The position numbers and the translations under genes were made by a program. From NCBI GenBank assembly GCA_030390025.1, contig CM059432.1:93002001-93066000 (forward strand): a stretch of DNA of 64,000 nucleotides. The letters are read 5' to 3'. Origin of the DNA: Squalus acanthias. Its lineage: Eukaryota. The notes below the pieces were generated by a model, which was not told the DNA's origin, did no database searches, and saw nothing but the letters and a program-made list of their open reading frames with translations. Below, piece after piece: positions 7,371 through 45,636 of this stretch (position 1 is the stretch's first letter; every line of letters starts with the position of its first letter).

Positions 7371-8688
7371 TTAATTTCCTGAACTCCACTTTCCCACCCG
7401 ATCCCCATATCCCTCGAACCCGTCTATGCACAATGCAATGGCACCTCTCCTGCAACTACAGTCAATAAGACAGCCAAACATGGAAAAAGCCGAGTAGAAA
7501 ACCAGTAAAGGACGAGGTGTTCAGGTGGAAATGATTCCGAGCAAGTCTTTATATTCTGTAACGTATTCTAAATAAAAACACCAGCTGAATTGCCATTGGG
7601 GTAGAGTTTCCGCTTTGGGCGCAATCAGCGATTCCGGCGCAAATTGCACCCGTTTTGCAAAGTGTTCTCTTCTCTCCCCCCCCCCCCCCCCCCCCGAGTT
7701 TCCGCTCACTCATTTGCATATCGCCAAACGCAAAATCTGCCATGATCCAGTGCAATTGGGCAGCTTTTTAAAATAAGTTTTGCTTTTTAAAAAAAAAAAT
7801 GCCTTCATATTTAAGAGTGGTAACTTGGGGAAGTTTGATTAAAACAGCTGAAAATGGGTTTAATCACAAAAGATAAGCATTTTTAATCAGTGTCAATCCG
7901 TCACCCATGAGTGACCTGATTTTAAATGACTGAAATTTACTTAAAAAAATATTTGCCCCTATCACTTGCAACAGCATAAACTCCTCAATATGGGAAACCG
8001 CCATGGAGGATCTACAATATGAATGGAAAATAGGGGATGAAAGTCCTTGGGATACCAAAATTAGAATATTGTCTGCTACAGGGATGGGGGAAAGGGAGAG
8101 AAGTTCATTTCACATGAAAAGCAAACCTGGTAACAAAGGCCAGATAAAACTATCTAAAAGGCTGGAGGAGACAACAGTGGAGTCTTAATGCCACTCTTTT
8201 CACAAGTTGCACTTTAATCAGTAGAGACCAGGTAAATCCAGCTTTACTTGCAGCATTACTGTGCTTGGTGTGAAAATTTAAACACAATACAATGGGCCCT
8301 TGCTGTCTGAAAATACACCCACTTGGCTTCTATGGGGGAGAAATTTGGTATTGCCCCGTTTGGGGCGCAATTATTGGCCGGGCGCAAAGTTTAGCACCTG
8401 GCGCTAATTATTGCCTCCGACTGCAAACTTGGCTTCTATTGCCCCTGGAGGTGATTGGAGCGCTAAATCAGGCGCTGCACACCTGTCTTCAGGTGCAAAG
8501 GCCGAGGAGCGAGGTGCTATCTCAGAGTGCTGGCGAAGCTCGTGATGTCAGTTAGCAATGGAACACACACTGGCCCCAGCCAGTTCTTAAAGGGGAGGGT
8601 CGATCTTGCTCTCCAGCCACACCCTGCTCATTGGAGCCTTGAATCTCGGCCTGGAAAGACCTGTGATTACATTTTCCAGCCAAGGACT

Positions 8689-10420
8689 ATGGAGAGGGTG
8701 AGAGAACAAGCTCAGCGCTTCAGCGAGCGGGCCTTGGAGGCTCTGGTTGGCGCGGTGGAGCGCAGAAGATCTATACTCTACCCTGAGAGTGGCAGGAGGC
8801 CTTTGCCGCGTGACTACAGAAGAGTGTGGAGGGAGGTGGCTCAGCATGGTGCCCAGGACCCATACTCAATGTCGCAAAAAGTTCAATTACCTCACTCGGG
8901 TCGTCAGGGTGAGTGGCTTTTTTTCAATATCTCTCCATTCCTCCATTTCAACCTCACTCTATGGCCAGTGGGTCTTAAAACCCCAATGCCCAACACTCAT
9001 CCAACACCTATGGCCCTCTCATGAAACACACATGCACATTCCACACCTTGCATACAGTAAGGGCAATTCAACTATGGGAGGCACATCAGGCAAGACCATG
9101 GCTGTACATTTACTCAGACGCCGTCCTTTTTCTTGCAGGCCAAGCTCTCTCTCAATAGGAGACAGCAGCAATGGACGGTGGAGGGCGGCCTCAGCTGCAA
9201 CCCCTCAGCGATCTTGAGGCGCGCATCCACAGGATTGTGGCAAGCCGGGTGATCGGTCCCGTCGCCCCTGGAGAGGCTGACCCTGTTCGGGACAGCAATG
9301 GTAAGGTCATCAGCTTTCTCTCCTCTCATTCCATTTGTCCCTCACAACACCAGCCTTTGACACTTTCAGTCCAACTTACTAAATCGCTGCACTTCTTCCT
9401 CCCTTACTGCCCCCCCTGTCCTCACACTAAAGCCACTCTTGTACCTCCCTGCTTTTAGATGATGATGATTCACCAGCTGAGGAGACTGGTCCTGAAGCTG
9501 CCAGTGGGAGCGAAGCCGCAGGTGAGGAGGAAGCCGGAGCATCAGCGCCACCCTCTCCCGAGGAAGCCCATGCCCACACTGGGACCACGTCTTCCCTGGA
9601 GGGGAGCAGGGGGGAAGGGTCTGATGAGGGTGAAGCTCCGGGACCCAGCGAGCTGCAGCAACGCGATGTGACTAGGGAAGCTCGGGGGGCCTTCTGCCCG
9701 GAGGGAGAGTCGGCCAGCGAGTCCTGCTGCACTGGACGCAAAGGAGGAGTGGCTCATCGCTGAAATTAACACCCAGGCGGTGGACATGCACACTCAGCTC
9801 ATGGGTGCAGTGGGAAGGGTGCCCGATTGCATTGATGCACTGGCAAGGAGTGTGGAGCACTACGTGTAGCACAGGCGCATGCCACGCTAATACTTAGTGC
9901 TGCAATTCAGTCACTGGCTGCCGTGATCCAATCTCAGACTGGTCTCATGCAGACTCAGATTGAGGCCACACAAGCACTGACTGCTGCCATTGTTGCTGGC
10001 TCGGACATATTTCCCCGGGGCTCTCACCGTGCCGCAGCAGGCCAGCAATCTGTGCTCCAGCAGATTGCTCCAGATGCTGAGGTGCTGCCCCGTGGGAGTG
10101 CCAGTCGAGCAGGGAGTCGCTGTCCTCTCTCAAGATGACAGCATTCCTGCTGCCACCACTGTCACTTCCCCATTGCACTTGCCACCGCCTGTAGCCCAGA
10201 CTGCTGCCGCCCATGCAGAGTTGGTGCAGTCTGCAGCCGGGCCTTCCAGGCCCAGAGCTGGTCGAGGCTGTCCTTCAAGGGCATCTGTAGTCTCGGTTCT
10301 GACAATCAGCAGCCTTCCACAAGCCTTGCTGCAGCCACTGGGGCCCCATTACGGAGGAGCAGTAGGGTGGGAAGGGGGTAAGTGTGCAAGGGAAGGAGAT
10401 CACCCTCGAAGGGCAAAAAG
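8689..10420 (+). pseudogene. Harbinger Myb/SANT-like (trihelix) gene, frameshifted; exons ~8689-8908, 9139-9300, 9459 onward
   Basis: RFSERALEALVGAV...W.EVA...RT..QCRKKFN.L motif and canonical GT-AG sites. Confidence 0.8.
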
Positions 10421-10644
10421 TAGGAGGTGTGACGAAATGTTGGTAAATTTTTTAATAAAGGCCGAGGTTCGTGCTCAAACTTTTGTTTAGTGTTTTGGAC
10501 ATTATCTCCAGGTTGTGAGAACCAGTAATGTTAATGAATGATTTTTTGTGTTTGTTTCTATTAGTTTGTCATGAAGAAATGACACACACACTTTGTAAAA
10601 TAAAAAAGTTTTGTATTCAGAATGTACAGGTTTGGCCTTTGGAA

Positions 10645-11160
10645 TCATTGCTGCCTTGGCCAGCTTTGGGGTTGCGGGTTGCTTTCATTCATGTTGTTCT
10701 CCCTGCCAGGGTCATGGGGAAAGAGATGTACTGGCGTCTCCTTATAGAGGGCATTTGTGACCTGACGGATACAGCAATGGACCGTGAACTGGGAGATATT
10801 GGCGATGTCCCCAGTAGCTGCTTGAAAGGAGCCGGTGGCATGAAAATTCAGAGCCACTGTGACCTTCACAGCCACCAACAGAGACGTCCTGGTCCTCAGT
10901 AGAGGCTGCAGATCTGGCTGCAGCAGGTGGCAGAGCTCAATGACCACCTCCTTGCTGAAGCGCAGCCTGCGCAAACATTGCTCCTCCGACAAATTAATGT
11001 AGGAGAATTGTTCCCGGAATACCCTGGGAGGGTAATGTCTCCTGCGCAGAGGCCTGTTAGCCCTCCTCCGTCTGGCCATGATTGCCATTCTCTCTGCGTC
11101 TCTGTTGCTTCCGATTCTGCAGGCGCAGGACGACGCCCCGAATCAGTGTAGCCCCCAAGT
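10645..11160 (-). pseudogene. Harbinger (HARBI1-like) transposase N-terminal remnant
   Basis: LSEEQCLRRLRFSKE...VTVALNFHATGSFQ...GD..NISQ. The DDE core is missing. Confidence 0.88.
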
Positions 11161-20894: not shown

Positions 20895-21199
20895 GAGATT
20901 TAATAGAGGTTTTGTTTTAATTATGAAGAGTTTTAATAGTGACTAGGGATAGACTATTTCCTCTGGTTGGGAAGACTGTGACAAGGGGTCAGCAATTTAA
21001 AATTGCCACTAAAAGTCTGAGTAGAAAGATTAGAAGACATTTTTTCGGAGTGATTATTTGGAACGCATTTTGACTGCGCATGCACACCCGTTTGGTACTG
21101 CACATGCGCACTCAATCAGGTCGCGCATGCGCAGTATCAAACGGTGCGGCGGCCTGCGTCGTCACGTTTTCCTCGGCTCCGTGCGGAGAAGTACAGGGG

Positions 21200-24100
21200 C
21201 TGGGGGGCGGGGGAAGAGATCAGAGAGGAGGTCGAGAGGAGATCGGAGGTGGGAGAGAGAGAAAGAGAAAATCGGAGGGGGGAGAGAGAAAGAGATCGGA
21301 GGGGGGGAAGAGAGAAAGAGGAGATCGGAGGGCTGAGATCGAGAAAGAGGAGATAGGAGGGGGGGAGAGAGAAAAAGAGGAGATCGGAGGGGGGAGATCG
21401 AGAGAGAGAAAGAGGAGGTCGGAGGGGGGAGAGAGAAAGGAGGTCGGAGGGGGAGAGAGAAAGGAGGTCGGAGGGGGGAGAGCGAGAGAGAGAAAGAGGA
21501 GGTCGGAGGGGGGAGAGAGAAAGGAGGTCGGAGGGGGAGAGAGAAAGGAGGTCGGAGGGGGGAGAGCGAGAGAGAGAAAGAGGAGATCGGAGGGGGGAGA
21601 GAGAGAGAAAGGAGATCGGAGGGGGGAGAGAGAAAGAGGAGGTCGGAGGGGGGAGAGAGAGAGAGAAAGAGGAGGTCGGAGGGGGGAGAGAGAGAGAGAA
21701 AGAGGAGGTCGGAGGGGGGAGAGAGAGAGAAAGAGGAGGTCGGAGGGGGGAGAGAGAGAGAGAAAGAGGAGGTCGGAGGGGGGAGAGAGAGAGAAAGAGG
21801 AGGTCGGAGGGGGGAGAGAGAGAGAGAAAGAGGAGGTCGGAGGGGGGAGAGAGAGAAAGAGGAGGTCGGAGGGGGGAGAGAGAGAAAGGAGGTCGGAGGG
21901 GGGAGAGAGAGAGAAAGGAGGTCGGAGGGGGGAGAGAGAGAGAAAGGAGGTCGGAGGGGGGAGAGAGAGAGAGAAAGGAGGTCGGAGGGGGGAGAGAGAG
22001 AGAAAGGAGGTCGGAGGGGGGAGAGAGAGAGAAAGAGGTCGGAGGGGGGAGAGAGAGAGAAAGAGGTCGGAGGGGGGAGAGAGAGAGAAAGAGGTCGGAG
22101 GGGGGAGAGAGAGAGAAAGGAGGTCGGAGGGGGGAGAGAGAGAGAAAGAGGTCGGAGGGGGGAGAGAGAGAGAAAGGAGGTCGGAGGGGGGAGAGAGAGA
22201 AAGGAGGTCGGAGGGGGGAGAGAGAGAAAGAGGAGGTCGGAGGGGGGAGAGAGAGAAAGAGGAGGTCGGAGGGGGGAGAGAGAGAGAGAGAGAGAAAGAG
22301 GAGATCGGAGGGGGGAGAGAGAGAGAGAGAAAGAGGAGGTCGGAGGGGGGAGAGAGAGAGAGAGAGAGAAAGAGGAGATCGGAGGGGGGAGAGAGAGAGA
22401 GAGAAAGAGGAGATCGGAGGGGGGAGAGAGAGAGAGAGAAAGAGGAGATCGGAGGGGGGGAGAGAGAGAAAGAGGAGATCGGAGGGGGGGAGAGAGAGAA
22501 AGAGGAGATCGGAGGGGGGGAGAGAGAGAGAGAGAGAAAGAGGAGATCGGATGGGGGGGGAGAGAGAGGAAGAGGAGATCGGATGGGGGGGGGAGAGAGA
22601 GGAAGAGGAGATCGGATGGGGGGAGAGAGAGGAAGAGGAGATCGGATGGGGGGGGAGAGAGAGGAAGAGGAGATCGGATGGGGGGGGGAGAGAGGAAGAG
22701 GAGATCGGATGGGGGGAGAGAGAGGAAGAGGAGATCGGATGGGGGGAGAGAGAGGAAGAGGAGATCGGATGGGGGGAGAGAGAGGAAGAGGAGATCGGAT
22801 GGGGGGAGAGAGAGGAAGAGGAGATCGGATGGGGGGAGAGAGAGGAAGAGGAGATCGGATGGGGGGAGAGAGAGGAAGAGGAGATCGGATGGGGGGAGAG
22901 AGAGGAAGAGGAGATCGGATGGGGGGAGAGAGAGGAAGAGGAGATCGGATGGGGGGAGAGAGAGGAAGAGGAGATCGGATGGGGGGAGAGAGAGGAAGAG
23001 GAGATCGGATGGGGGGAGAGAGAGGAAGAGGAGATCGGATGGGGGGAGAGAGAGGAAGAGGAGATCGGATGGGGGGAGAGAGAGGAAGAGGAGATCGGAT
23101 GGGGGGAGAGAGAGGAAGAGGAGATCGGATGGGGGGGAGAAAGGAAGAGGAGATCGGATGGGGGGGAGAAAGGAAGAGGAGATCGGATGGGGGGAGAGAG
23201 AGGATGAGAGGGGAGAGATCGGATGGGGGGGGAGAGGGGAGAGATCGGAGGGGGGGGAGAGATCGGATGGGGGGGGAGAGATCGGATGGGGGGGGAGAGA
23301 TCGGATGGGGGGGGGGGGAGAGATCGGATGGGGGGGGGGGGAGAGATCGGATGGGGGGGGGGGAGAGATCGGATGGGGGGGGGGAGAGATCGGATGGGGG
23401 GGGGGAGAGATCGGATGGGGGGGGGGAGAGATCGGATGGGGGGGGGAGAGATCGGATGGGGGGGGGGGAGAGATCGGATGGGGGGGGAGAGATCGGATGG
23501 GGGGGGAGAGATCGGATGGGGGGGGAGATCGGATGGGGGGGGGAGAGGGGAGAGATCGGATGGGGGGGGAGAGGGGAGAGATCGGATGGGGGGGGGAGAG
23601 ATCGGATGGGGGGGGAGAGGGGAGAGATCGGATGGGGGGGGGGGGAGAGGGGAGAGATCGGATGGGGGGGGAGAGGGGAGAGATCGGATGGGGGGGGGGA
23701 GAGGGGAGAGATCGGATGGGGGGGGAGAGGGGAGAGATCGGATGGGGGGGGGAAGAGATCGGATGGAGGGGGGAAGAGATCGGATGGAGGGGGGAAGAGA
23801 TCGGATGGAGGGGGGAAGAGATCGGATGGAGGGGGGAAGAGATCGGATGGAGGGGGGAGAGATCGGATGGAGGGGGGAGAGATCGGATGGAGGGGGGAGA
23901 GATCGGATGGAGGGGGAGAGATCGGATGGAGGGGAGAGATCGGATGGAGGGGGGAGAGATCGGATGGAGGGGGGAGAGATCGGATGGAGGGGGGAGAGAT
24001 CGGAGGGGGGGGGAGAGATCGGAGGGGGGGAGAGGTCGGATGGGGGGGAGAGGTCGGAGGGGGGGGAGAGGGGAGAGATCGGATGGGGGGGGAGAGAGGA

Positions 24101-26230
24101 AGAGGAGATCGGATGGGGGGGGGAGAGAGAGGAAGAGGAGATCGGATGGGGGGAGAGAGAGGAAGAGGAGATCGGATGGGGGGAGAGAGAGGAAGAGGAG
24201 ATCGGATGGGGGGAGAGAGAGGAAGAGGAGATCGGATGGGGGGAGAGAGAGGAAGAGGAGATCGGATGGGGGGAGAGAGAGGAAGAGGAGATCGGATGGG
24301 GGGAGAGAGAGGAAGAGGAGATCGGATGGGGGGAGAGAGAGGAAGAGGAGATCGGATGGGGGGAGAGAGAGGAAGAGGAGATCGGATGGGGGGAGAGAGA
24401 GGAAGAGGAGATCGGATGGGGGGAGAGAGAGGAAGAGGAGATCGGATGGGGGGAGAGAGAGGAAGAGGAGATCGGATGGGGGGAGAGAGAGGAAGAGGAG
24501 ATCGGATGGGGGGAGAGAGAGGAAGAGGAGATCGGATGGGGGGAGAGAGAGGAAGAGGAGATCGGATGGGGGGAGAGAGAGGAAGAGGAGATCGGATGGG
24601 GGGAGAGATGGAAGAGGAGATCGGATGGGGGGGAGAAAGGAAGAGGAGATCGGATGGGGGGAGAGAGGATGAGAGGGGAGAGATCGGATGGGGGGGGAGA
24701 GGGAGAGATCGGAGGGGGGGGAGAGATCGGATGGGGGGGGAGAGATCGGAGGGGGGGGGGGGAGAGATCGGATGGGGGGGGGAGAGATCGGATGGGGGGG
24801 GGGGGAGAGATCGGATGGGGGGGGAGAGATCGGATGGGGGGGGGGAGAGATCGGATGGGGGGGGGAGAGATCGGATGGGGGGGGAGAGATCGGATGGGGG
24901 GGGGAGAGATCGGATGGGGGGGGAGAGATCGGATGGGGGGGGGGGAGAGAGATCGGATGGGGGGGGGGAGAGATCGGATGGGGGGGGGGAGAGATCGGAT
25001 GGGGGGGGAGAGATCGGATGGGGGGGGGAGAGATCGGATGGGGGGGGAGAGATCGGATGGGGGGGGAGAGATCGGATGGGGGGGGGGAGAGATCGGATGG
25101 GGGGGGAGAGATCGGATGGGGGGGGGGAGAGATCGGATGGGGGGGGGGAGAGATCGGATGGGGGGGGGAGATCGGATGGGGGGGGGAGATCGGATGTGGG
25201 GGGGAGAGGGGAGAGATCGGATGGGGGGGAGAGGGGAGAGATCGGATGGGGGGGGAGAGGGGAGAGATCGGATGGGGGGGGGGAGAGGGGAGAGATCGGA
25301 TGGGGGGGGGGAGAGGGGAGAGATCGGATGGGGGGGGAGAGGGAGAGATCGGATGGGGGGGGAAGAGATCGGATGGAGGGGGGAAGAGATCGGATGGAGG
25401 GGGGAAGAGATCGGATGGAGGGGGGAGAGATCGGATGGAGGGGGGAGAGATCGGATGGAGGGGAGAGATCGGATGGAGGGGGGAGAGATCGGATGGAGGG
25501 GGGAGAGATCGGAGGGGGGGGGAGAGATCGGAGGGGGGGAGAGGTCGGATGGGGGGGAGAGGTCGGAGGGGGGGGAGAGGGGAGAGATCGGATGGGGGGA
25601 GAGGGGAGAGATCGGATAGAGGGGGAGATCGGATGGGGGGGAAGAGAGGGGAGATCGGATGGGGGGGAAGAGAGGGGAGATCGGATGGGGGGAAGAGAGG
25701 GGAGATCGGATGGGGGGAAGAGAGGGGAGATCGGATGGGGGGGAAGAGAGGGGAGATCGGATGGGGGGGAAGAGAGGGGAGATCGGATGGGGGGGGAAGA
25801 GAGGGGAGATCGGATGGGGGGGAAGAGAGGGGAGATCGGATGGGGGGAAGAGAGGGGAGATCGGATGGGGGGAAGAGAGGGGAGAGCGGAGGGGGGGAAG
25901 AGAGGGGAGAGCGGATGGGGGGGAAGAGAGGGGAGATCGGATGGGGGGGAAGAGAGGGGAGAGCGGAGGGGGGGAAGAGAGGGGAGATCAGATGGGGGGA
26001 AGAGAGGGGAGAGCGGAGCGGGGGAGAGAGAGTGGGGGATCGGAGCGGGGGAGAGAGAGTGGGGGATCGGAGCGGGGGATCGGAGGGGAGTTCGGAGAGA
26101 GCGGGGTGAAGGTCAGGAGCTCGGGGAGAGAAGGTCGGGAAGTTGTTGAGGGGAGCATATGAGTGCAGTGGGGAGGGTGGGGGGAAGAACGTGATCCAGG
26201 TCTAAAGTGGGGGGTGGGGAGTGGGATCGG
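21200..26230 (+). repeat. Polypurine satellite built from (G)n(AG)n-GATCGGA/GGTCGGA units, including pure 30-mer arrays
   Basis: The unit GGGGGGAGAGAGAGGAAGAGGAGATCGGAT is repeated at ~22700-23130 and ~24130-24600. Confidence 0.97.
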
Positions 26231-30329: not shown

Positions 30330-31382
30330 ATGTACAGTAAAAGCTCCCACCTGACACACTTTCCTCAGCCACAAGCTATTCCTCACTGCATTTCCACAAC
30401 AGATTCACCATGCTGCAAGTCTTTCCACAAGTCTCCATCCAGTCTCACCTCACCTGTGTCATGCTCCTCCTGTAACATGTGGGAAATCATGGACGCTTCC
30501 TGTGTCCCTGACAACCATGTGTGCGGGAAGTGTGTCCAGCTGCAGCTCATGTGGGACCGCATGACGGCCCTTGAGCTGCGGATGGACTCACTTTGGAGCA
30601 TCCACGATTCTGAGAGGGTTGTGAATAGCACATTTAGTGAGTTGGTCACACCGCAGGTTAAGGCCAGAGTAGATAGTACATGGGTGACCAAAAGGCAGAG
30701 CAAGGGCAGGAAGGTAGTGCAGGAATCCCCTGGGGTTGTCTCCCTCAGCAACAGGTTCACCGCCTTAGGTGCTGTTGTCGGGGGGGATGACTCATCGGGG
30801 GAAGGCACCAGCAGCCAGGCTCATGGCACCATGACTGGCTCTGTTGCAAAGAAGGGAGGGAAAAAGAGTGGCAGGGCTATAGTAATAGGGGATTCGATTG
30901 TAAGGGGAATAGATAGGAGTTTCTGTGGTCGCGACCGAGACTCCAGGATGGTAATTTGCCTCCCTGGTGCAAGGGTCAAGGATGTCTCGGCGCGGGTGCA
31001 GAACATTCTGGAGGGGGAGGGGGAACAGCCAGTTGTCGTGATACATGTTGGTACCAACGACGTAGCTAAAAAAAGGGAAGAGGTCCTACAAGTAGAATTT
31101 AGGGAGTTAGGAGCCAAGCTAAAAAGTAGGACCTCGAAGGTAGTAATCTCTGGATTACTACCAGTGCCACGTGCTAGTAAGAGTACAGAGAACAGGATAG
31201 TTAGGCTAAATACGTGGCTTGAGCAGTGGTGTAAGAGGGAGGGTTTTAAATTTTTGAGGCATTGGGACCAGTTTTGTGGTAGGTGTGACCTATACAAAAG
31301 GGACGGTCTACACCTGTGCAAAGATGGAACTGAGGTTCTCGGGGTAAATTTTGATAAAGCAGTTCGGGAGCATTTAAACTAG
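30330..31382 (+). CDS. CR1 ORF1: Cys finger, coiled-coil/zipper and SGNH esterase; the first ~42 codons probably derive from flanking DNA
   Basis: CSSC...CGKC, IGDS, HVGTND and DGLH motifs. Confidence 0.88.
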   Translation: MYSKSSHLTHFPQPQAIPHCISTTDSPCCKSFHKSPSSLTSPVSCSSCNMWEIMDASCVPDNHVCGKCVQLQLMWDRMTALELRMDSLWSIHDSERVVNSTFSELVTPQVKARVDSTWVTKRQSKGRKVVQESPGVVSLSNRFTALGAVVGGDDSSGEGTSSQAHGTMTGSVAKKGGKKSGRAIVIGDSIVRGIDRSFCGRDRDSRMVICLPGARVKDVSARVQNILEGEGEQPVVVIHVGTNDVAKKREEVLQVEFRELGAKLKSRTSKVVISGLLPVPRASKSTENRIVRLNTWLEQWCKREGFKFLRHWDQFCGRCDLYKRDGLHLCKDGTEVLGVNFDKAVREHLN

Positions 31383-34300
31383 TATGGCAGGGGGCTAGAA
31401 ACCCATGTAGTGAAATAGAGGAAAGTGAAAGGCAGACAGAAATAAATGGTAAAAAGGAGAGGAACAAAAAACAAAGGGCCAAACTAATTCATAAAAAATG
31501 TGAGCATAAAAAAAGCCTGAGGGTTTTATACCTTAATGCGAGAAGCATCAGGAACAAGGTAGATGAATTAGCTGTGGAAATAGAGGTTAATAATTATGAT
31601 CTAATTGGGATTACGGAAACATGGTTGCAGGGTGAGCAGGGCTGGGAGCTTAACATACAGGGGTATTCAGTATTTAGGAAGGATCGACAAAAAAGAAAGG
31701 GAGGAGGGGTAGCATTGCTGGTAAAAGAGGGGATAAATGCAATTGAAAGGAAGGATATTAACTCAGTTAATACAGAATCTATATGGGTGGAGCTAAGAAA
31801 TAGCGAGGGGCGAAAAACATTAATAGGAGTGGTATATAGGCCTCCAAATAGTAAAATAGAGGTTGGGGAGGGCATCACGAGGGAAATTAGAGAAGCGTGC
31901 AATAAGAGCACAGCTGTCATCATAGGTGACTTTAACTTACATATAGATTGGACTAGCCTAATCAGTAAAAATAATGAGGAGGAGGAATTCCTTGAGTGTT
32001 TAAGGGATGGTTATCTGGATCAATATGTCGAGGAACCAACTCGGGAACAGGCTATATTGGACTGGGTACTGTGCAATGAGAAGGGACTAATTAGTAATCT
32101 TGTTGTACGGGGACCCTTGGGTCAGAGCGATCATAACATGATCGATTTCTCACTCGAAATGGAGAGCGAAGAAATTGACTCAGAGACTCAGGTCCTGAAT
32201 TTAAACAAGGGGAATTATGATGCCATTAGACGGGAACTGAGTAGGTCTGATTGGACAACGTTCCTGGGAGGACTGGAGGTAGATAAACAATGGCAAGCAT
32301 TTAAAGATAGAATGACAAAATTGCAAAAATTGTTTATACCAATCTGGCATAAAAGGAAATCTAAAAAGGTGACTCAACCGTGGATAACAGGGGAAATTAG
32401 AGACAGCATAAAATCCAAAGATAGGGCGTATAAAATAGCCAAAAAACGCGCCAGAGCGGAAGATTGGGAACAGTTTAAGATAGAGCAAAGGAGGGCAAAG
32501 GGCTTAATCAAGAAGGGCAAAATAGCTTACGAAAGCAAGCTGGCGGAAAATATAAAAACTAACTCCAAAAGCTTTTATAAGTATATCAAGAGGAAAAGAC
32601 TGGTGAAAACCAAAGTTGGTCCATTGCAGTCAGATATGGGGGAATATATAATGGGAAATAAGGAAATGGCAGACCAACTAAATGCATACTTTGGGTCAGT
32701 CTTTACGAAGGAAGACACAAAAAACCTCCCTGGGATATCGGGAAAAATAGGGACATTGGCAAAGGAGGAACTGACGCAAATCAATATCTCTAAGGATATG
32801 GTGTTAAGGAAGCTAAAGGGATTGAAGGCGGACAAATCCCCAGGGCCTGATAACATGCATCCTAGGGTACTGAAGGAGGTGGCCCTAGAGATAGCGGATG
32901 CACTAAGCATGATTTTTCAGAATTCATTAGACTCGGGAACAGTGCCCATGGATTGGAGGGTAGCTAACGTTACCCCACTATTCAAAAAGGGGGGTAGGGA
33001 AAAAGCAGGTAATTACAGACCTGTAAGCCTTACATCAGTTGTGGGCAAAATGCTGGAGTCCATCATTAAGGATGAAATAGCCGAGCACTTAGCAAATGGG
33101 GACAGGATAGGACAGAGTCAACATGGATTTACAAAGGGTAAATCGTGCTTGACTAATCTATTGGAATTTTTTGAGGGAGTAACTGGTAAAATAGATGGGG
33201 GAGAGCCAGTAGATGTGGTGTACCTGGACTTCCAAAAGGCCTTCGATAAGGTCCCACATAAAAGATTAGCATGGAAAATTGAAGCTCATGGGATAAAGGG
33301 GAAAGTATTGACGTGGATAGAGAACTGGCTGTCAGATAGAAAACAGAGAGTTGGAATAAACGGCTCATTTTCTGAATGGCAGGCAGTAACAAGTGGGGTA
33401 CCACAGGGATCTGTCCTGGGTCCCCAGCTGTTCACAATTTATATTAATGACCTGGATCAGGGAGTCGAATGCAGCATTTCCAAATTTGCAGACGACACTA
33501 AACTAGGAGGGGGGGTGGGCTCAGAGGAGGAGACCAGGAAGCTCCAGAGCGATTTGGACAGACTGGGTGATTGGGCGGATAAATGGCAGATGCACTATAA
33601 TGTGGACAAGTGCGAAGTTATCCACCTTGGGTGCAGGAACGGGAGGGCAAATTATTATTTAAATGGCAATAAATTGGGAGAGGGGGAAGTACAGAGAGAC
33701 CTGGGTGTTCTTGTACACCAGTCACTGAAGGCGAGCATGCAGGTGCAACAGGCGGTCAAGAAGGCAAACGGTATGCTGGCCTTCATAGCAAAAGGGTTGG
33801 AATACAGGAACAGGGATACCTTGCTGCAGCTGTACAGGGCACTGGTGAGACCACACCTCGAGTACTGTGTACAGTTTTGGTCGCCTCATCTGAGGAAAGA
33901 TGTTCTTGCCATGGAGGGGGTGCAGCGGCGATTCACCAGGCTGATACCAGGAATGGCGGGATTGACCTATGAGGAGAGACTATGTAGTTTAGGGATGTAC
34001 ACACTGGAGTTTAGAAGATTGAGAGGGGACCTCATAGAAGTGTATAAAATTCTGACAGGTCTAGACAGATTAGATGCAGAAGGAATGTTTCCCTTGGCGG
34101 GTGAGAACAGAACTAGAGGACATAATTTAAGGATAAGGGCTAAACCATTTAGGACAGAAATGAGGGGGAATTTCTTCACTCAGAGAGTGGTGAACCTGTG
34201 GAACTCATTGCCACAGAGGGCAGTGTACGCCAGCTCATTAAATATATTTAAGAGGGAATTAGATATATTTCTACAGGCAAAAGGGGTTAAGGGTTACGGA

Positions 34301-34417
34301 GAGAAGGCGGGGACGGGATACTGAATTGAAGGATCAGCCATGATCTCATTAAATGGCGGAGCAGGCTCGAAGGGCCGGATGGCCTACTCCTGCTCCTATC
34401 TTCTATGTATCTATGTA
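30455..34417 (+). mobile_element. Near-full-length young CR1 LINE
   Basis: Uninterrupted ORF1 and ORF2, 3' UTR and TCTATGTA tail. Confidence 0.95.
31358..34324 (+). CDS. CR1 ORF2: APE endonuclease plus reverse transcriptase; frame open from 31358, no AUG until 32138
   Basis: YLNARSI, ITETW, GDFN, SDH, YLDFQKAFD, GVPQGS and FADD motifs. Confidence 0.95.
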   Translation, partial: SSSGAFKLVWQGARNPCSEIEESERQTEINGKKERNKKQRAKLIHKKCEHKKSLRVLYLNARSIRNKVDELAVEIEVNNYDLIGITETWLQGEQGWELNIQGYSVFRKDRQKRKGGGVALLVKEGINAIERKDINSVNTESIWVELRNSEGRKTLIGVVYRPPNSKIEVGEGITREIREACNKSTAVIIGDFNLHIDWTSLISKNNEEEEFLECLRDGYLDQYVEEPTREQAILDWVLCNEKGLISNLVVRGPLGQSDHNMIDFSLEMESEEIDSETQVLNLNKGNYDAIRRELSRSDWTTFLGGLEVDKQWQAFKDRMTKLQKLFIPIWHKRKSKKVTQPWITGEIRDSIKSKDRAYKIAKKRARAEDWEQFKIEQRRAKGLIKKGKIAYESKLAENIKTNSKSFYKYIKRKRLVKTKVGPLQSDMGEYIMGNKEMADQLNAYFGSVFTKEDTKNLPGISGKIGTLAKEELTQINISKDMVLRKLKGLKADKSPGPDNMHPRVLKEVALEIADALSMIFQNSLDSGTVPMDWRVANVTPLFKKGGREKAGNYRPVSLTSVVGKMLESIIKDEIAEHLANGDRIGQSQHGFTKGKSCLTNLLEFFEGVTGKIDGGEPVDVVYLDFQKAFDKVPHKRLAWKIEAHGIKGKVLTWIENWLSDRKQRVGINGSFSEWQAVTSGVPQGSVLGPQLFTIYINDLDQGVECSISKFADDTKLGGGVGSEEETRKLQSDLDRLGDWADKWQMHYNVDKCEVIHLGCRNGRANYYLNGNKLGEGEVQRDLGVLVHQSLKASMQVQQAVKKANGMLAFIAKGLEYRNRDTLLQLYRALVRPHLEYCVQFWSPHLRKDVLAMEGVQRRFTRLIPGMAGLTYEERLCSLGMYTLEFRRLRGDLIEVYKILTGLDRLDAEGMFPLAGENRTRGHNLRIRAKPFRTEMRGNFFTQRVVNLWNSLPQRAVYASSLNIFKRELDIFLQAKGVKGYGEKAGTGY

Positions 34418-35199
34418 TTATCTCTCTTACCACATTATCTCTCTCACCAATGACAGATCGCTTCTGTCATCTGTACTTCACCTGCCATCTATTCCATCAG
34501 CATGGGTGCCGTTTATACTGTCTCACCTTGGTCCTTAGAATTGGACCACGATGAGCCCCAACACCAGCAGCACCAACAACACCACCAACTTTCTCCGCAA
34601 TCACCTGATGCTGCACAGTATAGAGGGCATCAGCACCCGACCACATTGCTGCCCAGGAGGCCAGGGATGGCCTCACCATGGCCAGATTTACTTCACTTGA
34701 CGCTACACACCCTGGCTGCAACATGATGCGCCAGGTTGGCACCACCCCACACCAACACCATAAAGCATCCCTACAGTGTCTTAGCCATTCCTTTCTCACA
34801 CATCACCATTGGGGGGTGGGGACGTTCTGTCTCCCCATTCACTGCAACTCACTAAGCCACTTCCAAAGGTGCACACAAATCTGTCCAACACCGGAAAGTG
34901 TTGAAAATAAAGATTTTAATATTTGACAGCACATTAATAGAAACTTTACATAAACATTGGATAAAACACCCAAGTGGCTACCCTTGTGTGTTGTTAGTTG
35001 GTATGATTGCACTAGGATGAGGGTGAGAGTGAGGGGTGGCTAGTGAGATGGGGATGTGATAATGTAGATAGAGAGGGATGGGTGGAGGTGCAAGGTAAGT
35101 TGGTGTGAGCAAGGATGTGCAGGAGTAGGGTAGGGAAGGCAGAGTGATGAGAATGTGATGAGAGGCAAAGCAGGCTGAGGTTGAGTGTGGCTTTGTACT

Positions 35200-35445
35200 A
35201 ACGTTTCGTGATCTAATGAGATCATTGAAATGTTTGTGCCACTGCACCCAGGTCCTCCTGACCACATCCTTGCTTGTGCCCTCCTGTGCAATGTGCAACC
35301 AGGCTGTTTTGGTCTCCTGGGGAGGTGTCTTCCGCCCATCGGAAGGGAAGAGGACCTCCCTACGTGCTCTGACTCCCTCCATAAGTATATGGAGGGAATC
35401 ATGGGAGAACCTGGCTGCAGCCCTCTGCCTCTGTGCAGTCATTGT
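35200..35445 (-). pseudogene. Harbinger Myb/SANT-like exon
   Basis: AARFSHDSLHILMEGVRARREVLFP...AWLHIAQE...RRTWVQW.K.FNDL. Confidence 0.8.
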
Positions 35446-36470
35446 CAGTGTTTGCAGCACTTCAATGCTGCAGAACACTGACAGCATAACTGTCAAAAGA
35501 AAGTTGGCCATGGTCCCTTTAAGGAAAGCGGCTGATGATGTGTCATGAATGACGTCACCAGACCCGCTTCCTCTAATTGGGCCGGGAAACGCGCTGGGCT
35601 GGCTTAACAAGACCGATCAACGTAAATTCATTTTAGACAGCGGGATGGAGCCAGTAGCGGGTCCACGACCTGCCACCGATATTGCCCGCCCCGGACCCGC
35701 TGAGGTGAGCAAAATCCCGGCCATTGTTACCAAACAATACATTTTCCAAAAGGTGTTTCTAAGTTTGACATTCTTGTGTAGAAAGTGAGGCATGTTGTTT
35801 CTCATTCCCTTCCTCTGCATACCACAGACCATCCTGTATGGTCAGAAGCCAGTGGTTTTGCCATAATTCCCACAAAAACAAATTAAATATCTTTGGTTTT
35901 TACCAAGAGTAAGTGTCTAGAATTGTCACATTAGGTAAATGTGCAGATTTAAAATGATTTGTGCTGCACAACTATAAGACACTTCAATGGCTAATGACCT
36001 GAAATAAGATGCTAATGTAGGTTTTCTTGTGTATATTGAAAGGATAGCAACAGACTAGAATAATTAACTATCCATAAAGCTCATCTCAGCACTAAACATT
36101 TATTGTATTTTTAGACCTCACATACAATATTCTCGCCAAGGGTGACAGTTAAGTCAGCCTGAACTTCAAAACACTTGGAAGATTACATATATGTTAATTA
36201 TAGCTGTTTTGTCTCTAACAGTTTAAGTTCTGATTTATAGATTTTATTCATATATTTATTGTATGTGGTTTCTGGTGTTGACAATGTTACGTTACACAAT
36301 TTATTCTCTGTTCCAATGTTTTTGGTCTTTTAGTAACACCATCCTTTTTTGAAAAATCGCAATAAATAATTACACGCATGGGACTTTGGGATATCTTCAA
36401 CATATAATGCATTTAAAAAAACGTTATATCTTAACCAAAAGAAAAATACCATAACTCCAGTCAAACATGC

Positions 36471-39760: not shown

Positions 39761-40439
39761 ATGAATTGTGTAACCTCAGTGGTCACTATGGAGATCCTCC
39801 AATGCCAGAATCATTGATGCCTCAAACTTCCCTTCATCTCAGTGCTATGGCCGATGGATTTCTAAACCTATGCAAATTCACTTTTTTTTTTAAAAACACA
39901 GCACTTAAACATAACTCAACCCCAAATCCTCTGTAAAAGAGAAAAAAAGCTCCAAAATCCCAAAACATGACCCATGAAACCCACTGTGGCTTTCATGCAT
40001 TGTACACATCTCTGCTCTCATAGGGATGTGAGGCTTTACCAGCTTTCAAGATTTTTATTTTTAAAAAGTATTCCATTTCCTTGGTGTGAAGCAATTCTGT
40101 CTTTCATTTATGTACAGCTAGGTATCTGACCAATTCTGTAAACTGAGGGGGGTGATTTTCTCGGATACTTTATGCGCTAAAAAGCCTACGAGTTGGCCAA
40201 GATGGGGTCGTAAGCTACAATGCCGGTTTAGCCCGCCTTTAGCACAAGACACCATTTTGGTAAAGGAGCTTAAGTGCGCGCTAGGAACGGCTGCCCGGAG
40301 AATTGTTCAGGCACTGATTGACAATTAAGCGCTCATTAAACAGGCTGCATAACATTTTGGTGGGTAATGCTTCAATTAACGACCTCCCCTAATAACGACC
40401 AGCTAAACAGGAGTAAACAAGTCCTTGCTGAGTATTTTG

Positions 40440-43400
40440 AGTGGAAATTCTCTGAGGACGTCACCTAAAAAGAATGTGGTAGTGGTAGGGGACAGTATAG
40501 TCAAGGGGATAGATACTGTTCTCTGCAGCAGCGACTGGGAGTTCCGAAGGTTGTGTTGCCTGCCCGGTGCCTGGGTTAAGGACATCCCCTCGCGGCTGGA
40601 GAATAACTGGGAGGGGGAGGATCCAATTGTTGTGGTCCACATAGAAACCAATGACATAGGTAGAACTAGGAATGAGGTTCTGCTGGGAGAGTTTGAGGAG
40701 CTATGGTCGAAATTAAAATGCAGAACCTCAAAGGTAATAATTTCTGGATTGTTACCTGAGCCACGCGCAAATTGGCATAGGGACAAACAGATTAGAAGGG
40801 TAAATGTGTGGCTGCGGTTTGGGTGGCAGGGGTTTCGCCTCATGGGGCATTGGCACTGTTTTATAATACGGTTGGCCAAATCATCAGTGGATTGTCCAGA
40901 GATTCCAACACACACACACACGAAAGAGGGAGCTGTTCCGTTGGGACGGACTCCACTTAAGAACATAAGAAATAAGAGCAGGAGTAGGCCATACGGCCCC
41001 TCAAGCCTGCTCCGCCATTCAATAAGATCATAGCTGATCATCGACCTCAACTCCACTTTCCCGCCCGATCTCTATCTCCCTTGATTCCCCTAGAGTCCAA
41101 AAATCTATCTATCTCAGCCCTGAATATACTCAAAGACGCAACATGCACAGCCCTCTGCGGCAAAGAATTCCAAAGATTCACAACCCTCTGAGTGAAGAAA
41201 TTCCTCCTCATCTCAGTCTTAAATGGCCTATCCCTTATCCTGAGACTACGCCCCCTAGTTTTAGACACTCTAGCCAGGGGAAACAGCCTCTCAGCATCTA
41301 CCCTGTCAATCCCCTTTAGAATCTTGTATGTTTCAATGAGATCACCTCTTATTCTTCTAAACTCCAGAGAGTATAGGCCCATTCTACACAATCTCTCATC
41401 ATAGGTCAGCCCTCTCATCCCAGGAATCAATCTAGTGAACCTTCGTTGCACCGCCTCCAAGGCAAGTACTGTATATCCTTCCTTAGATAAGGAGACCAAA
41501 ACTGTGTACAGTACTCCAGGTGTGGTCTCACCAAGGCCCTGTACAATTGTAGCAAGACTTCCTTACTCTTGTACTCCAACCCCCTTGCAATAAAGGCCAA
41601 CCTGCCATTTGCCTTCCTTATTGCTTGCTGTACCTGCATGCTAGCTTTCTGTGTTTCTTGCACGAGGACACCCAAATCTCTCTGAACACCAACATTTGAA
41701 AGTTTCTCACCATTTAAAAAATATTCTGTTTTTCTATTCTTCCTACCAAAGTGAATAACCTCACATTTCCCTGCATTATACTCCATCTACCACCTTACTA
41801 ATATCCCTTTATAGACTCTGTGTTCTCCTCACAGCTTACTGTCCCACATAGCTTTATATCATCAGCAAACTTGGATACATTACACTCAGTCCCTTCATCT
41901 AGGTCATTAATATAGATTGTAAATAGCTGAGGCCCCAACACTGATCCTTGCGGCACCCCACTAGTTACAGCCTGCCAACCTGAAAGAGATCCGTTTATCC
42001 CTACTCTCTGTTTTCTGTCCGTTAACCAATCCTCTATCTATGCTACTATATTACCCCCAACCCCATGAGCCCTAATCTTGTGTAATAACCTTTTATGTGG
42101 CACCTTATCGAATGACTTTTGGAAATCCAAATATACTACATCCACTGGTTCCCCTTTATCTACCCTGCTAGTTACATCCTCAAAAAACTCTAATAAATTT
42201 GTCAAACACGATTTCCCTTTCATAAAACCATGTTGACTCTGCCTGATCATGTTATGATTTTCTAAGTGCCCCGATACCACTTCCTTAACAATGGATTCCA
42301 GCATTTTCCCGACGACTGATGTCAGGCTAACTGGCCTTTAGTTGCCTGTTTTCTCTCTCCCTCCTTTCTTGAATAGCAGTGTTACATTTGCGACCTTCCA
42401 ATCCACTGGGACCGTTCTAGAATCTAGGGAATTTTGGAAGATCAAAACCAATGCATCCACTATCTCTTCAGCCACCTCTTTTAGAACCCTAGGATGTAGG
42501 CCGTCGGGTCCAGGGGATTTGTCAGCTTTTAGTCCATTTAGTTTCTCTAGTACTTTTTCTATACTTATATTAATTACGTTAAGTTCCTCACCCTCATTCC
42601 CCACCATTTTTGGTATGCTTTTTGTGTCTTCTACTGTGAAAACAGATACAAAATATTTGTTTAACGTTTCAGCCATTTCCTTATTCCCCATAATAATTTC
42701 TCCTGTCTCAGCCTCTAAGGGACCAACGTTTACTTTTGCTACTCTTTTCTTTTTTACATACTTGTAGAAACTCTTACAATCTACTTTTATATTTCTTGCT
42801 AGTTTTCTCTCATTCTATTTTTTCCCTTTTTATCAACTTTTTCGTCAACCTTTGCTGGTTTCTGAAACTCTTCCAATCCTCAGGCTTATTATTATTCTTT
42901 GCAACATTATAAGCTTCTTCTTTCAATCTAATGCTATCCTTAACTTCTTTAGTTAGCCACGGTTGGATCACTTTTCCCGTGGAGTTTTTGTTTCTCAATG
43001 GAATGTATTTTTGTTGAGAATTATGAAATATTTCTTTAAATGCTAGCCACTGCTTATCTACCGCCATACCTTTTAATCTATTTTTCCAATCTACCTTAGC
43101 CAACTCGCCCCTCATACCTATGTAATTGGCTTTATTTAAGTTTAAGGCTCTAGTTTTGGACTTAGGCAAGTCAATCTCAAAATTAATGTGAAATTCTATC
43201 ATATTATGATCACTCTGCCCCTGAAGATCCTTTACTATGAGATTGCTAATTAACCCTGTCTCATTACACAGTACAAGATCTAAAATAGCCTGTTCCCTGG
43301 TTGGTTCCATGACATATTGTTCTAGGAAACTGTCTCGAATGCATCCCATGAACTCGTCCTCCAGACTACCTTTGCCAATTTGATTTGTCCAGTCTATATG

Positions 43401-45636
43401 AAGATTAAAGTCCCCCAAGATTATTGCATTACCTTTGTTGCAAGCTCCTACTATTTCTTGATTAATATTCTGTCCAACGGTACAGCTACTGTTAGGGGGC
43501 CTATATACTACTCCTACCAGTAAACCGGGCTGGAACCAGTGTCCGACAAATCGAGTATCTAGGGCGGTAGATAGGGCTTTAAACTACTGAAGTGGGGTGG
43601 TGGGAGGATTCAGGATTGGGTAAATTCAAAAGCAGTAAGAGAAATGTCAAGGCTGTAGAGCAGAGTAGCGATTTGGGTAAAAATAAGCAGAGTGAGTCAG
43701 GAACGGATAGAGAGCTTAACAAAGGTAATAGGGCATTACAGACGAAGGTAACATCAGGGAAAAATAGAACAAAAATAAAACTAAAGGCACTATATCTGAA
43801 TGTGTGAAGCATTTGCAACAAAATAGATGAATTAATAGCACAAATAGAAATTGATCTAATAGCCATTACGGAGACGTGGCTGCAGAGTGACCAAGGTTGG
43901 GAATTAAATATTCCAGGATACATGGCTTTTAGAAGAGATAGGCAAAATGGAAATGGGGGGTGGGGTGGTTAGCCCTGATAATAAAGGATGCGATAAAGAC
44001 ACTAGAGAGAGAAAGGATCTTATCTCAGAAAATCAAGATGTAGAATCTGTTTGGGTGGAGCTAAGAAACAACAAGGGGCAGAAAACACTGATGAGAGTAG
44101 TTTATAGGCCCCCTAACAGTAGTTGTAGTGTTGGGCAGAGTATAAATCATGAAATTAGAGGGGCATGTAACAAGGGTAATACAGTAATCATGGGGGACTT
44201 TCATATAGACTGGCCAAACCAAATTTGCAGCAATAGTGTGGAGGACGAGTTCATGGAATGTATTCTGGATAGTTTTCTAGATCAGTACGTCAAGGAACCA
44301 ACTAGGGAACAGGCTATTTTAGATCCAGTATTGTGCAACGAGAAAGGGTTAATTAATAACCTTGTAGTAAAGCAGCCTCTGGGGAAGCGTGATTATAATA
44401 TGATAGACTTTGAGAGTGATTTAGTCAAGTCTGAAACTAGGGTCTTAAATCTGAACAAAGCAAACTACATAGGTATGAGGGGCAAGTTGGCTAAGGTAGA
44501 TATAAAACTAGATTAAAAGATATGGCAGTAGATAAGCAATGGCAAACATTTAAAGAATTAATTCATAATTCACAATGAATATACATTCCCCTACGGAATA
44601 AAACCCCCACAGGAATAGAGGCCCAATAGTGACGAACAAGAGAAGTTAAAGATAGTATTAGATTAAAGGAAGATGCTTATAATGCTGGCAAAAAAAATAG
44701 TAAATTGAGGATTGGGAGGATTTGAGAATTCAGCAAAAGATGACCAAGAAATTGTTAGAGAGAGAGAAAAGAGAATATGAGAGTAAACTAACAAGAGACA
44801 TACAAGATTGTAAAAGATTCTATAGGTATGTAAAAAGGAAGAGATTAGCGAAAGTAAACATGGGTCCCTTCGAGGCAGGGGCAGGAGAAATTATAATGGG
44901 GAATAAGGAAATGGCAGAAACATTAAACGAGTACTTTGTATCTGTCTTCATGGTAGAAGACACTAGTGCGGTACTGCAAAGATCAGTGCTTGGGCCTCGG
45001 CTATTTACAATCTATATCAGTGACTTAGATAAGGGGACCAAGTGTAATGTATTCAAGTTTGCTGACGATACAAATTTAGGTGGGAAAGTAAGCTGTGAGG
45101 AAGATGCAAAGAGGCTGCAGAGAGATATAGACAGGTTAAGTGAGTGGGCAAGAACATGGCAGATGGAATATAATGTGGAGAAGTGTGAAGTTATCCTATG
45201 AGGAGAGATTGAGTAGACTAGGCCTATATTCCCTAGAGTTTAAAAGAATGAGAGGTGATCTTATTGAAACATATACAATTCTTAAGGGGCTTGACAGGGT
45301 AGTTGCTGGGAGGATGGTTCCCCTGGCTGGAGAGTCTAAAACTTGGGGTCACAGTCTCAGAATAAGACATTGGCCATTTAGGACTGAGATGAGGAGAAAT
45401 TTCTTCACTCAAAAAGGGTTGCGAATCTTTGTAATTCTCTACCCCAGAGAGCTATGGATGCTCAGTCGTTGAGTATATTCTTTGGATTTTTGGATACTAA
45501 TGGAAGCAAGGGATATGGGGATAGGGCAGGAAGGTGGAGTTGAGGTAGAAGATCAGTCATGATCTTACTGCATGGCGGAGCAGGCTTTAAAGGCCAAATG
45601 GCCTACTCCTGCTCCTATTTCTTATGTTCTTATGTG
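40440..45636 (+). mobile_element. CR1 (ORF1 esterase ~40440-40860; ORF1 end and deleted ORF2 at 43521-45636) split by an antisense CR1
   Basis: VVGDS...CLPGA...TND motifs, GCTTTAAACTA junction at ~43577, TTCTTATG tail. Confidence 0.85.
40958..43520 (-). mobile_element. CR1 LINE from mid-endonuclease to the 3' end, with stops and frameshifts
   Basis: ORFs 41047-43418 with GDFN, SDH and RT motifs. Confidence 0.93.

Follow-up and report, generated by a model that had tools for sequence, protein, structure and literature searches.

We analysed a 64,000-nucleotide stretch of the Squalus acanthias genome (contig CM059432.1, positions 93,002,001 to 93,066,000; hereafter the window), which is rich in pieces of CR1-type long interspersed nuclear elements (LINEs). 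One CR1 copy with an intact second open reading frame (ORF2) is located on the forward strand at about 30453-34418. We propose that ORF2 of CR1 elements is probably reached by programmed -1 ribosomal frameshifting, which would give an ORF1-ORF2 fusion. We favor this reading because of the layout of the two frames, the phase of a slippery heptamer, the lack of an AUG start in this copy, and the conservation and covariation of the heptamer among relatives.

ORF1 of the window copy ends with CAT TTA AAC TAG, which places the heptamer T_TTA_AAC (31373-31379) in phase. ORF2, read at -1, is open from 31358 to 34324 and overlaps ORF1 by 25 nt, the ORF1 stop codon included. The first in-frame ATG of ORF2 is found at 32138, two codons past the SDH motif of the endonuclease. 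The original prediction had claimed each of these three features, and we found them as described. Between the heptamer and position 31516 the -1 frame contains no stop codon, while frame 0 contains 4 and frame +1 contains 9. The junction lacks a UAAUG stop-start element: it reads TAGTA, and the ATG at 31384 belongs to the +1 frame, which meets a stop at 31396.

Taken by itself, this single copy is weak evidence and merely suggestive, because in-phase heptamers and open shuffled linkers arise by chance. TTTAAAC occurs 23 times in the window (both strands together), ORF1 contains three canonical heptamers in phase within 301 codons (31241, 31346 and 31373), and the -1 frame remained open in 3.5% of 20,000 linker shuffles. 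The in-phase heptamer at 31346 was rejected as a slip site: it is followed immediately by a -1 stop, and A31348 is a T in most related contigs. In a contig with 16% divergence (68 differences in 431 nt) the phase of the junction is kept with just two compensating gaps. Its linker region comprises 214 nt compared with 172 nt in the window copy, and the difference of 42 nt corresponds to whole codons. The 40 of 113 variant rows shown for related contigs include none at 31373-31394, which is not proof of invariance at these positions.

A second CR1 copy near 43578, which belongs to another subfamily, had been predicted to keep GCTTTAAACTA at the same junction. This sequence is present, and its heptamer (43578-43584) is in phase with the remnant of ORF1 (...RAVDRALN). 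The phase of ORF2 is not kept: the stop codon reads TAC, and in the present decayed state the endonuclease frame is +1 instead of -1. This copy therefore backs the motif, not the ORF2 phase.

Conservation of the junction among vertebrates

Conservation of heptamer and phase had been set beforehand as the test of the prediction. It extends well outside the genome of Squalus acanthias, as seen in the Leu-Asn (LN) tails of ORF1 proteins, in consensus junctions and in heptamer exchanges. The vertebrate set consists of the 120 listed of 264 ORF1 homologues and is mostly of vertebrate origin. LN followed by the stop codon is found in 91 of these 120 proteins, and in 81 of the 85 with a DGxH motif 22-30 residues from the end. 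In a set of 91 tails with the catalytic motif as anchor, Leu is kept in 89 and Asn in 90, so that both are as invariant as the catalytic D-G-x-H, and the 10 residues ahead of LN are variable. LN also terminates all 23 tails that remain after de-duplication. Replacement of the Leu by Ile, Val or Met is almost never observed (2/91). The preceding residue is one without a U-ending codon (Lys, Glu, Gln, Met or Trp) in 3 of the 91 anchored tails as compared with 115/364 at four nearby positions, a comparison that uses related sequences and whose p-value is overstated; in the de-duplicated set the count is 1/23.

Consensus sequences were taken from the supplement of PMC13343379, from the first 400 nt of each row; the rows look gappy, their frames are unreadable, and species were taken from the row codes. 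TTTAAACTA occurs in 23 places, of which 22 were shown, and 16 of these 22 are ORF1 ends with TTTAAAC plus a stop codon (TAG in 11, TAA in 5), a count for which the search itself selects for the motif. The 16 rows represent chimaera, catshark, dogfish, stingray, sawfish, bowfin, Aldrovandia, coelacanth, frog, alligator and crocodile. A search on the upstream codons for DGLH showed 21 rows; eight reach the ORF1 end, all eight contain TTTAAAC, and a ninth ends at GCTTT. These eight ORF1 ends are a subset of the 16. TTTAAACTA is additionally present upstream of ORF1, in the 5' untranslated region (UTR) of the consensus sequences SquAca_CR1-18 and SquAca_CR1-3.

Protein models from stingray and frog provide a view of the -1 frame. 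FKL is read in this frame by two gene models from stingray, P0037 and P0123, and by the protein P0085; P0037 and P0123 are open on to the endonuclease. The frog models P0131-P0135 read VKL and the frog ORF1 ends with ALN, which implies a putative G_UUA_AAC heptamer. The models P0037, P0123 and P0131-P0135 join ORF1 or host exons to ORF2, an arrangement expected if splicing or transcriptional slippage connected ORF1 (or a 5' AUG exon) to ORF2 in the RNA, and the CTAG at the junction offers a possible acceptor AG. These models are automatic, though, and are not expression evidence. Moreover, 5 of the 16 consensus junctions have TAA and hence no AG, a pyrimidine tract is absent, none of four listed contig joints has GT..AG, and the listing has no indel at the heptamer (the RNA status of the runs was guessed). 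We consider a joint at the RNA level highly improbable.

A search for longer ORF1 proteins gave 14 matches, mostly chimeras with host exons, and no complete protein of esterase, endonuclease and reverse transcriptase (RT), which is weak evidence. Vertebrate junction DNA was found neither in viral contigs nor in plasmids nor in genome contigs, where the search gave bacterial esterases only, with no endonuclease or RT beside them. The 80 loci obtained from metagenome contigs are distant ones, and the vertebrate type is absent among them. The accessible supplementary files of PMC4120745 (three files) and PMC4316615 (other than file 1) contained no junction sequence. The CR1 proteins P0009, P0129 and P0084 come from records labelled Pseudomonas aeruginosa, Carnobacterium maltaromaticum and Protopolystoma xenopodis, which were probably contaminated with host DNA.

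Heptamer exchange in distant relatives

Forty of the 80 metagenome loci hold both an esterase end and an endonuclease start. In 27 of them the two are in frame, in three (L003, L005 and L048) ORF2 is in the -1 frame, and ten are broken or +1. ORF1 of L003 ends with CAG GGA AAC TAG, i.e. G_GGA_AAC in phase, and ORF2 follows at -1. In L005 the heptamer A_AAU_UUU is in phase; the -1 frame opens precisely there, and no ATG is found ahead of the endonuclease. In both loci the heptamer is the sole in-phase one in about 350 ORF1 codons and is located within the overlap with the -1 ORF2. The L005 motif (L005:1350-1389) lies 12 codons ahead of the ORF1 stop, and in the RT tree this LINE is placed far away from the CR1 elements.

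A search with L003 ORF1 gave 2,245 representatives at 50% clustering. Of these, 150 were listed and 133 were usable; 17 were dropped, as they had no anchor or tail. A dipeptide compatible with a heptamer (XXY YYZ) is present between Asp+21 and Asp+33, counted from the catalytic Asp, in 108 of the 133, where the set of dipeptides and the window of positions were chosen after viewing the tails and kin sequences entered the count as if independent. Comparable windows in other parts of the proteins contain such a dipeptide in 19% of cases (6,703/34,669), and 2,000 shuffles of the tails gave a mean of 62 and a maximum of 84. The 108 dipeptides are GN (34), KN (19), LN (12), GF (11), FL (9), FF (7), NF (5) and others (11). 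Among the 81 listed representatives that end 23-30 residues past the catalytic Asp, GN occurs in 30, LN in 8 and KN in 3, together with many GF-x or FF-x tails. Non-canonical EN, DF and SN tails (P0268, P0272, P0347, P0363, P0336, P0358, P0303, P0366 and P0368) could be G_GAA_AAC, G_GAU_UUY or U_UCA_AAC variants. An ESM Atlas search returned mostly chordate clusters; in one cluster, all 103 proteins (~486 residues) combine a GDSL esterase with an Exo_endo_phos domain and may be natural esterase-endonuclease fusions in one frame.

The first base of the heptamer is the last base of the preceding codon, and 100 of the 108 representatives obey the corresponding codon-end rule. Residues without a U-ending codon precede LN in 3/97 cases and GN in 22/32; residues without a G-ending codon precede GN in 0/32 cases and LN in 27/97. 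Gln is the usual residue before GN (22/32) and is never found before LN (0/97). This pattern is the one predicted by U_UUA_AAC versus G_GGA_AAC.

These exchanges also bear on a protein-level explanation of the LN tail, in which the esterase would require a C-terminal Leu-Asn, heptamer and overlap would be by-products, and ORF2 would be translated by internal entry or from a sub-genomic RNA. The Leu matches the hydrophobic period of the last helix, a terminal Asn is common also in the lineage with UGA-C and no heptamer (see below), and this ORF1 has chance in-phase heptamers at a rate of roughly one in 100 codons. Relatives, however, replace the Leu by Gly, Lys, Phe or Asn and hardly ever by Ile, Val or Met (vertebrate count above), the preceding residue obeys the codon-ending rule, and the vertebrate DNA examples all read TTA AAC, one of 12 Leu-Asn codon pairs. 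In many proteins with KN, NF or NL, ORF1 continues for 10-15 codons past the motif, which is therefore not a C-terminal protein signal. The exchange of Leu for Gly, Lys or Phe with this covariation is predicted by the tandem-slippage rule and not by a protein constraint, which we regard as very unlikely to account for the motif.

In the in-frame class, a separate lineage of esterase LINEs, ORF2 is found directly past the ORF1 stop. The stop context is TGA-C in 24 of the 27 loci, which represent few independent families (about 6 rough groups). The codons after the TGA are CTA (9), CTT (8), CCA (4), CAA (2) and CCT (1). A G-rich stretch often follows a few codons past the stop, and most loci have ATGs ahead of the endonuclease. 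The context UGA-C favors stop-codon readthrough. If readthrough is right for these loci, two lineages would reach an ORF1-ORF2 fusion by different routes.

The main competing explanation for the -1 layout is termination-reinitiation, in which ORF2 would be restarted near the ORF1 stop, either at an AUG (UAAUG, as in SART1) or independently of an AUG (as proposed for L1), and the conserved bases would form the signal for termination or reinitiation. SART1 and L1 are precedents among LINEs (PMC3894237, PMC3708506, PMC5009743), and the vertebrate heptamer adjoins the stop. Fourteen of the 16 consensus junctions and the window copy, on the other hand, have no AUG there. Restarting also gives no account of the switch between X_XXY_YYZ forms together with a covarying first base, of the position of the motif 10-15 codons before the stop in L005 and in the KN/NF/NL proteins, or of a -1 frame that stays open as far back as the heptamer. 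We judge reinitiation to be unlikely.

Several observations weigh against frameshifting. In two of the 16 consensus junctions a TAATG places its ATG in frame with ORF2, and L003 has ATGs at -16 (16 nt ahead of the stop), +182 and +191 as potential ORF2 starts. Several ORF2 homologues start with a Met 8-86 residues ahead of the endonuclease; starts of this kind are imposed by gene callers. For mammalian L1 ORF2, an AUG-independent initiation is assumed (PMC5009743). A canonical dipeptide is absent from 25 of the 133 listed representatives, 8 of the 108 break the codon-end rule, and most of the distant heptamers were deduced from protein rather than read in DNA; the choice of dipeptides and positions after inspection and the relatedness of the sequences belong here as well. 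L048 has no heptamer; it is a member of the TGA-C lineage and probably carries an indel. In its present state the other copy in the window does not preserve the phase. Finally, the search for a stimulator was largely negative, as described in the next section.

Proposed mechanism and candidate stimulators

Based on the junction and its relatives we propose the following mechanism for the translation of CR1 ORF2. Most ribosomes would translate ORF1 and halt at the UAG codon, yielding the esterase ORF1 protein. In a minority, the Leu-tRNA and the Asn-tRNA would slip back by one base on U_UUA_AAC and thereby bypass the stop. The slipped ribosomes would continue via the linker into the endonuclease and RT. 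The predicted product is a Gag-Pol-like fusion of about 1,290 residues (...EHLN/LVWQGAR...), made at a low, fixed ratio to the ORF1 protein. We infer the slip, the fusion protein and the ratio from the sequences; the programmed-frameshift reading of the original prediction, with its fusion of esterase, endonuclease and RT, is supported by the conserved and covarying heptamers and by the lack of a GT..AG joint among those listed. Of the two junction peptides suggested earlier, EHLN/LVWQGAR (or EHLK/L...) would be expected from the tandem-slippage model, whereas REHFK would correspond to plain -1 translation and not to a product of slippage.

A weak hairpin downstream of the heptamer (ATGG...CCAT) had been suggested as a stimulator. 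It is no better than shuffled sequences (z = -1.0), and C31404 is a T in most related contigs. Folds 3' of the heptamer gave z-values from -1.0 to -0.05, and no stable stem-loop or pseudoknot was found 5-9 nt downstream, with no dedicated pseudoknot program run.

The best stimulator candidate is a run of G residues. It begins about 10-11 nt past the heptamer in the window copy and 10 nt past it in the consensus rows AllMis-1b, AllMis-6a, CroPor-3a, PriPec-7 and ScyCan-1a. The distance is 6-12 nt in most other consensus rows as well as in L003 and the second copy of the window; the run is absent from two gappy rows. It may just encode glycines. As a pairing partner for the G run, the 3' UTR ranked first of 65 windows in the main copy and third of 37 in the second copy. 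Equally good pairing was reached by 3-19% of shuffles and by 7-62% of G-matched windows, which counts among the points against the proposal. Co-folding and a fold of the whole element retained the local stem over this pairing, and the pairing is absent from L005, L037, L039, L050 and L066. We treat it as a weak lead. That frameshifting is driven by the G-rich motif with no local pseudoknot, the motif being read by a protein or paired with the element's own 3' end, appears rather unlikely to us. We give about even odds to a signal in vertebrate CR1 that would date back to the last ancestor shared by the jawed vertebrates.

The CR1 copy, its surroundings and known systems

The features of the window copy are compiled in Table 1. 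ORF1 contains a GDSL/SGNH esterase domain (PF13472, E = 1.9e-11), and ORF2 contains Exo_endo_phos (PF03372/PF14529) and RVT_1 (PF00078) domains according to Pfam. Homologues of ORF1 are found in sharks, rays, coelacanth, turtles, frogs, lizards and bony fish, and the closest named ones are from sharks and rays. Seven of the eight close homologues shown begin 11-15 residues ahead of the MWE/MCE motif. The window copy has no ATG at this position, its first ATG being 30477, and is apparently 5'-truncated a few codons into ORF1. Because of this apparent truncation the copy itself is probably inactive.

Table 1. Location of CR1 features in the window and loci of the TGA-C class.
Feature	Position or loci	Strand	Remarks
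ORF1, SGNH/GDSL esterase (about 30882-31328)	30453..31382	+	CxxC...CxxC motif, then linker, esterase and C-terminus ...REHLN-stop; 5' limit approximate
Slippery heptamer T_TTA_AAC	31373..31379	+	final two ORF1 codons and preceding base
ORF1 stop TAG	31380..31382	+	directly adjoins heptamer
ORF2, 988 codons without stop, -1 frame	31358..34324	+	earliest in-frame ATG 32138
Basic A-rich linker ahead of endonuclease	31383..31516	+	-1 frame free of stops
G run GGGGG, candidate stimulator element	31390..31394	+	similar spacing in several consensus rows
APE endonuclease domain (YLNARS...SDH)	31517..32143	+	SDH at 32126-32134
Reverse transcriptase domain RVT_1	32993..33625	+	Pfam
3' UTR with stem-loop 34358-34396 and short TCTATGTA-type tail	34325..34418	+	stem recurs in four other 3' ends
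Decayed ORF1 end/ORF2 start, another CR1 subfamily	43525..43830	+	heptamer 43578-43584; G-rich stretch from 43594
TGA-C loci	L012, L013, L017-L020, L022, L023, L026, L032, L037, L039
TGA-C loci, continued	L042, L044, L049-L051, L053, L055, L056, L062, L064, L066, L070

In an RT tree, built with no curated CR1 reference, the window copy is placed in an 18-row group (support 87/95) together with the bird proteins P0136 and P0141, which we took as CR1, and locus L003. Its junction is similar, by eye, to consensus rows labelled LINE/CR1. The copy also has a 3' stem-loop followed by a short microsatellite tail, which we take to be a defining feature of CR1; the stem at 34358-34396 is present in four other 3' ends of the window. 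A CR1 3' end that lacks poly(A) has been described (PMC2734521). No clean target-site duplication was found for the window copy. Matches with at least 99% identity occur in 629 of 2,803 contigs from one DNA run, the depth of which carries no information on expression; the family is young and abundant.

Elsewhere in the window, positions 21074-26200 hold a purine-rich tandem array of about 5 kb with a GC skew of +0.88, in which most frames are open (up to 1,691 codons). Remnants that by eye resemble a Harbinger/PIF transposase and a Myb/SANT-like partner are located at 8467-11142 and 34978-35616, and one of them is found shortly past the 3' end of the CR1 copy. A single decayed fragment of a CR1 esterase with no junction is found at 40398-40871, beside the 3' end of a CR1 element on the opposite strand.

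Frameshifting by -1 is textbook knowledge for viruses and long terminal repeat (LTR) elements (PMC5009743). U_UUA_AAC is the site of infectious bronchitis coronavirus, G_UUA_AAC is the variant of equine arteritis virus, and mammalian ribosomes shift on few heptamers as readily as on U_UUA_AAC and G_GGA_AAC (PMC5009743). The CR1 junction shares with the viral, retroviral and LTR gag-pol sites the in-phase X_XXY_YYZ motif at the end of the upstream ORF, a polymerase ORF in the -1 frame and the same heptamer variants. It differs in that CR1 is a non-LTR element with no protease, has no pseudoknot or stable hairpin that we could find 3' of the site, and is known from sequence alone. In the porcine virus PRRSV, frameshifting is stimulated by proteins: nsp1beta and PCBP bind CCCANCUCC 11 nt 3' of the site (PMC5009743). 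This is likewise a short, unstructured motif at a similar distance, but the CR1 motif is G-rich and the likeness is one of spacing only.

Among non-LTR elements, Dictyostelium TRE5-A and TRE3-A (APE-type) also have two overlapping ORFs, and their ORF2 is stated to need a -1 frameshift (PMC5911963). Their ORF1 is different, with no esterase named, and they represent a single amoeba lineage (PMC5911963), whereas the CR1 signal is retained across jawed vertebrates and changes according to a rule elsewhere. SART1 with UAAUG and L1 with its AUG-independent start resemble CR1 in their bicistronic LINE RNA and low-level ORF2 (PMC3894237, PMC3708506), but yield a separate ORF2 protein, while the CR1 layout points to a fusion. 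Canonical vertebrate CR1 elements have the esterase ORF1, the APE-RT ORF2, the 3' stem-loop and the short tail seen here; the mode of ORF2 translation is not addressed in the accessible text of PMC13343379 and PMC3905857.

Reviews discuss UAAUG coupling, reinitiation, internal ribosome entry sites and 2A as routes of LINE ORF2 translation (PMC3894237, PMC3708506), and frameshifting is not among the options for ORF2 initiation in parts 1-2 of 3 of PMC3894237. The word 'frameshift' is absent from the accessible text of PMC13343379, PMC2734521, PMC4120745, PMC3905857 and PMC11203168 and is used in that of PMC4255032 and PMC11835228 only in other senses. CR1 is mentioned 0 times in the first 300,000 of the 449,034 characters of PMC5009743. 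Our literature search gave no paper on CR1 frameshifting; it covered neither the bulk of the subscription literature nor the original accounts of CR1 in turtle and chicken (1997-2003). It is possible, though less likely than not, that those early accounts had put forward the overlap or a frameshift.

CR1 is the dominant retrotransposon group in most vertebrates (PMC13343379), and the production of ORF2 protein from bicistronic LINE RNA has been called an open question (PMC3894237, PMC3708506). If frameshifting is the route in CR1, the active enzyme would be a fusion of esterase, endonuclease and RT and not a free ORF2 protein, and the membrane-binding esterase would be physically tied to the RT. 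Annotations of CR1 ORF2 that start at the first AUG would then miss the endonuclease. CR1 elements would also represent a very large natural set of frameshift sites, apparently lacking the usual RNA structure.

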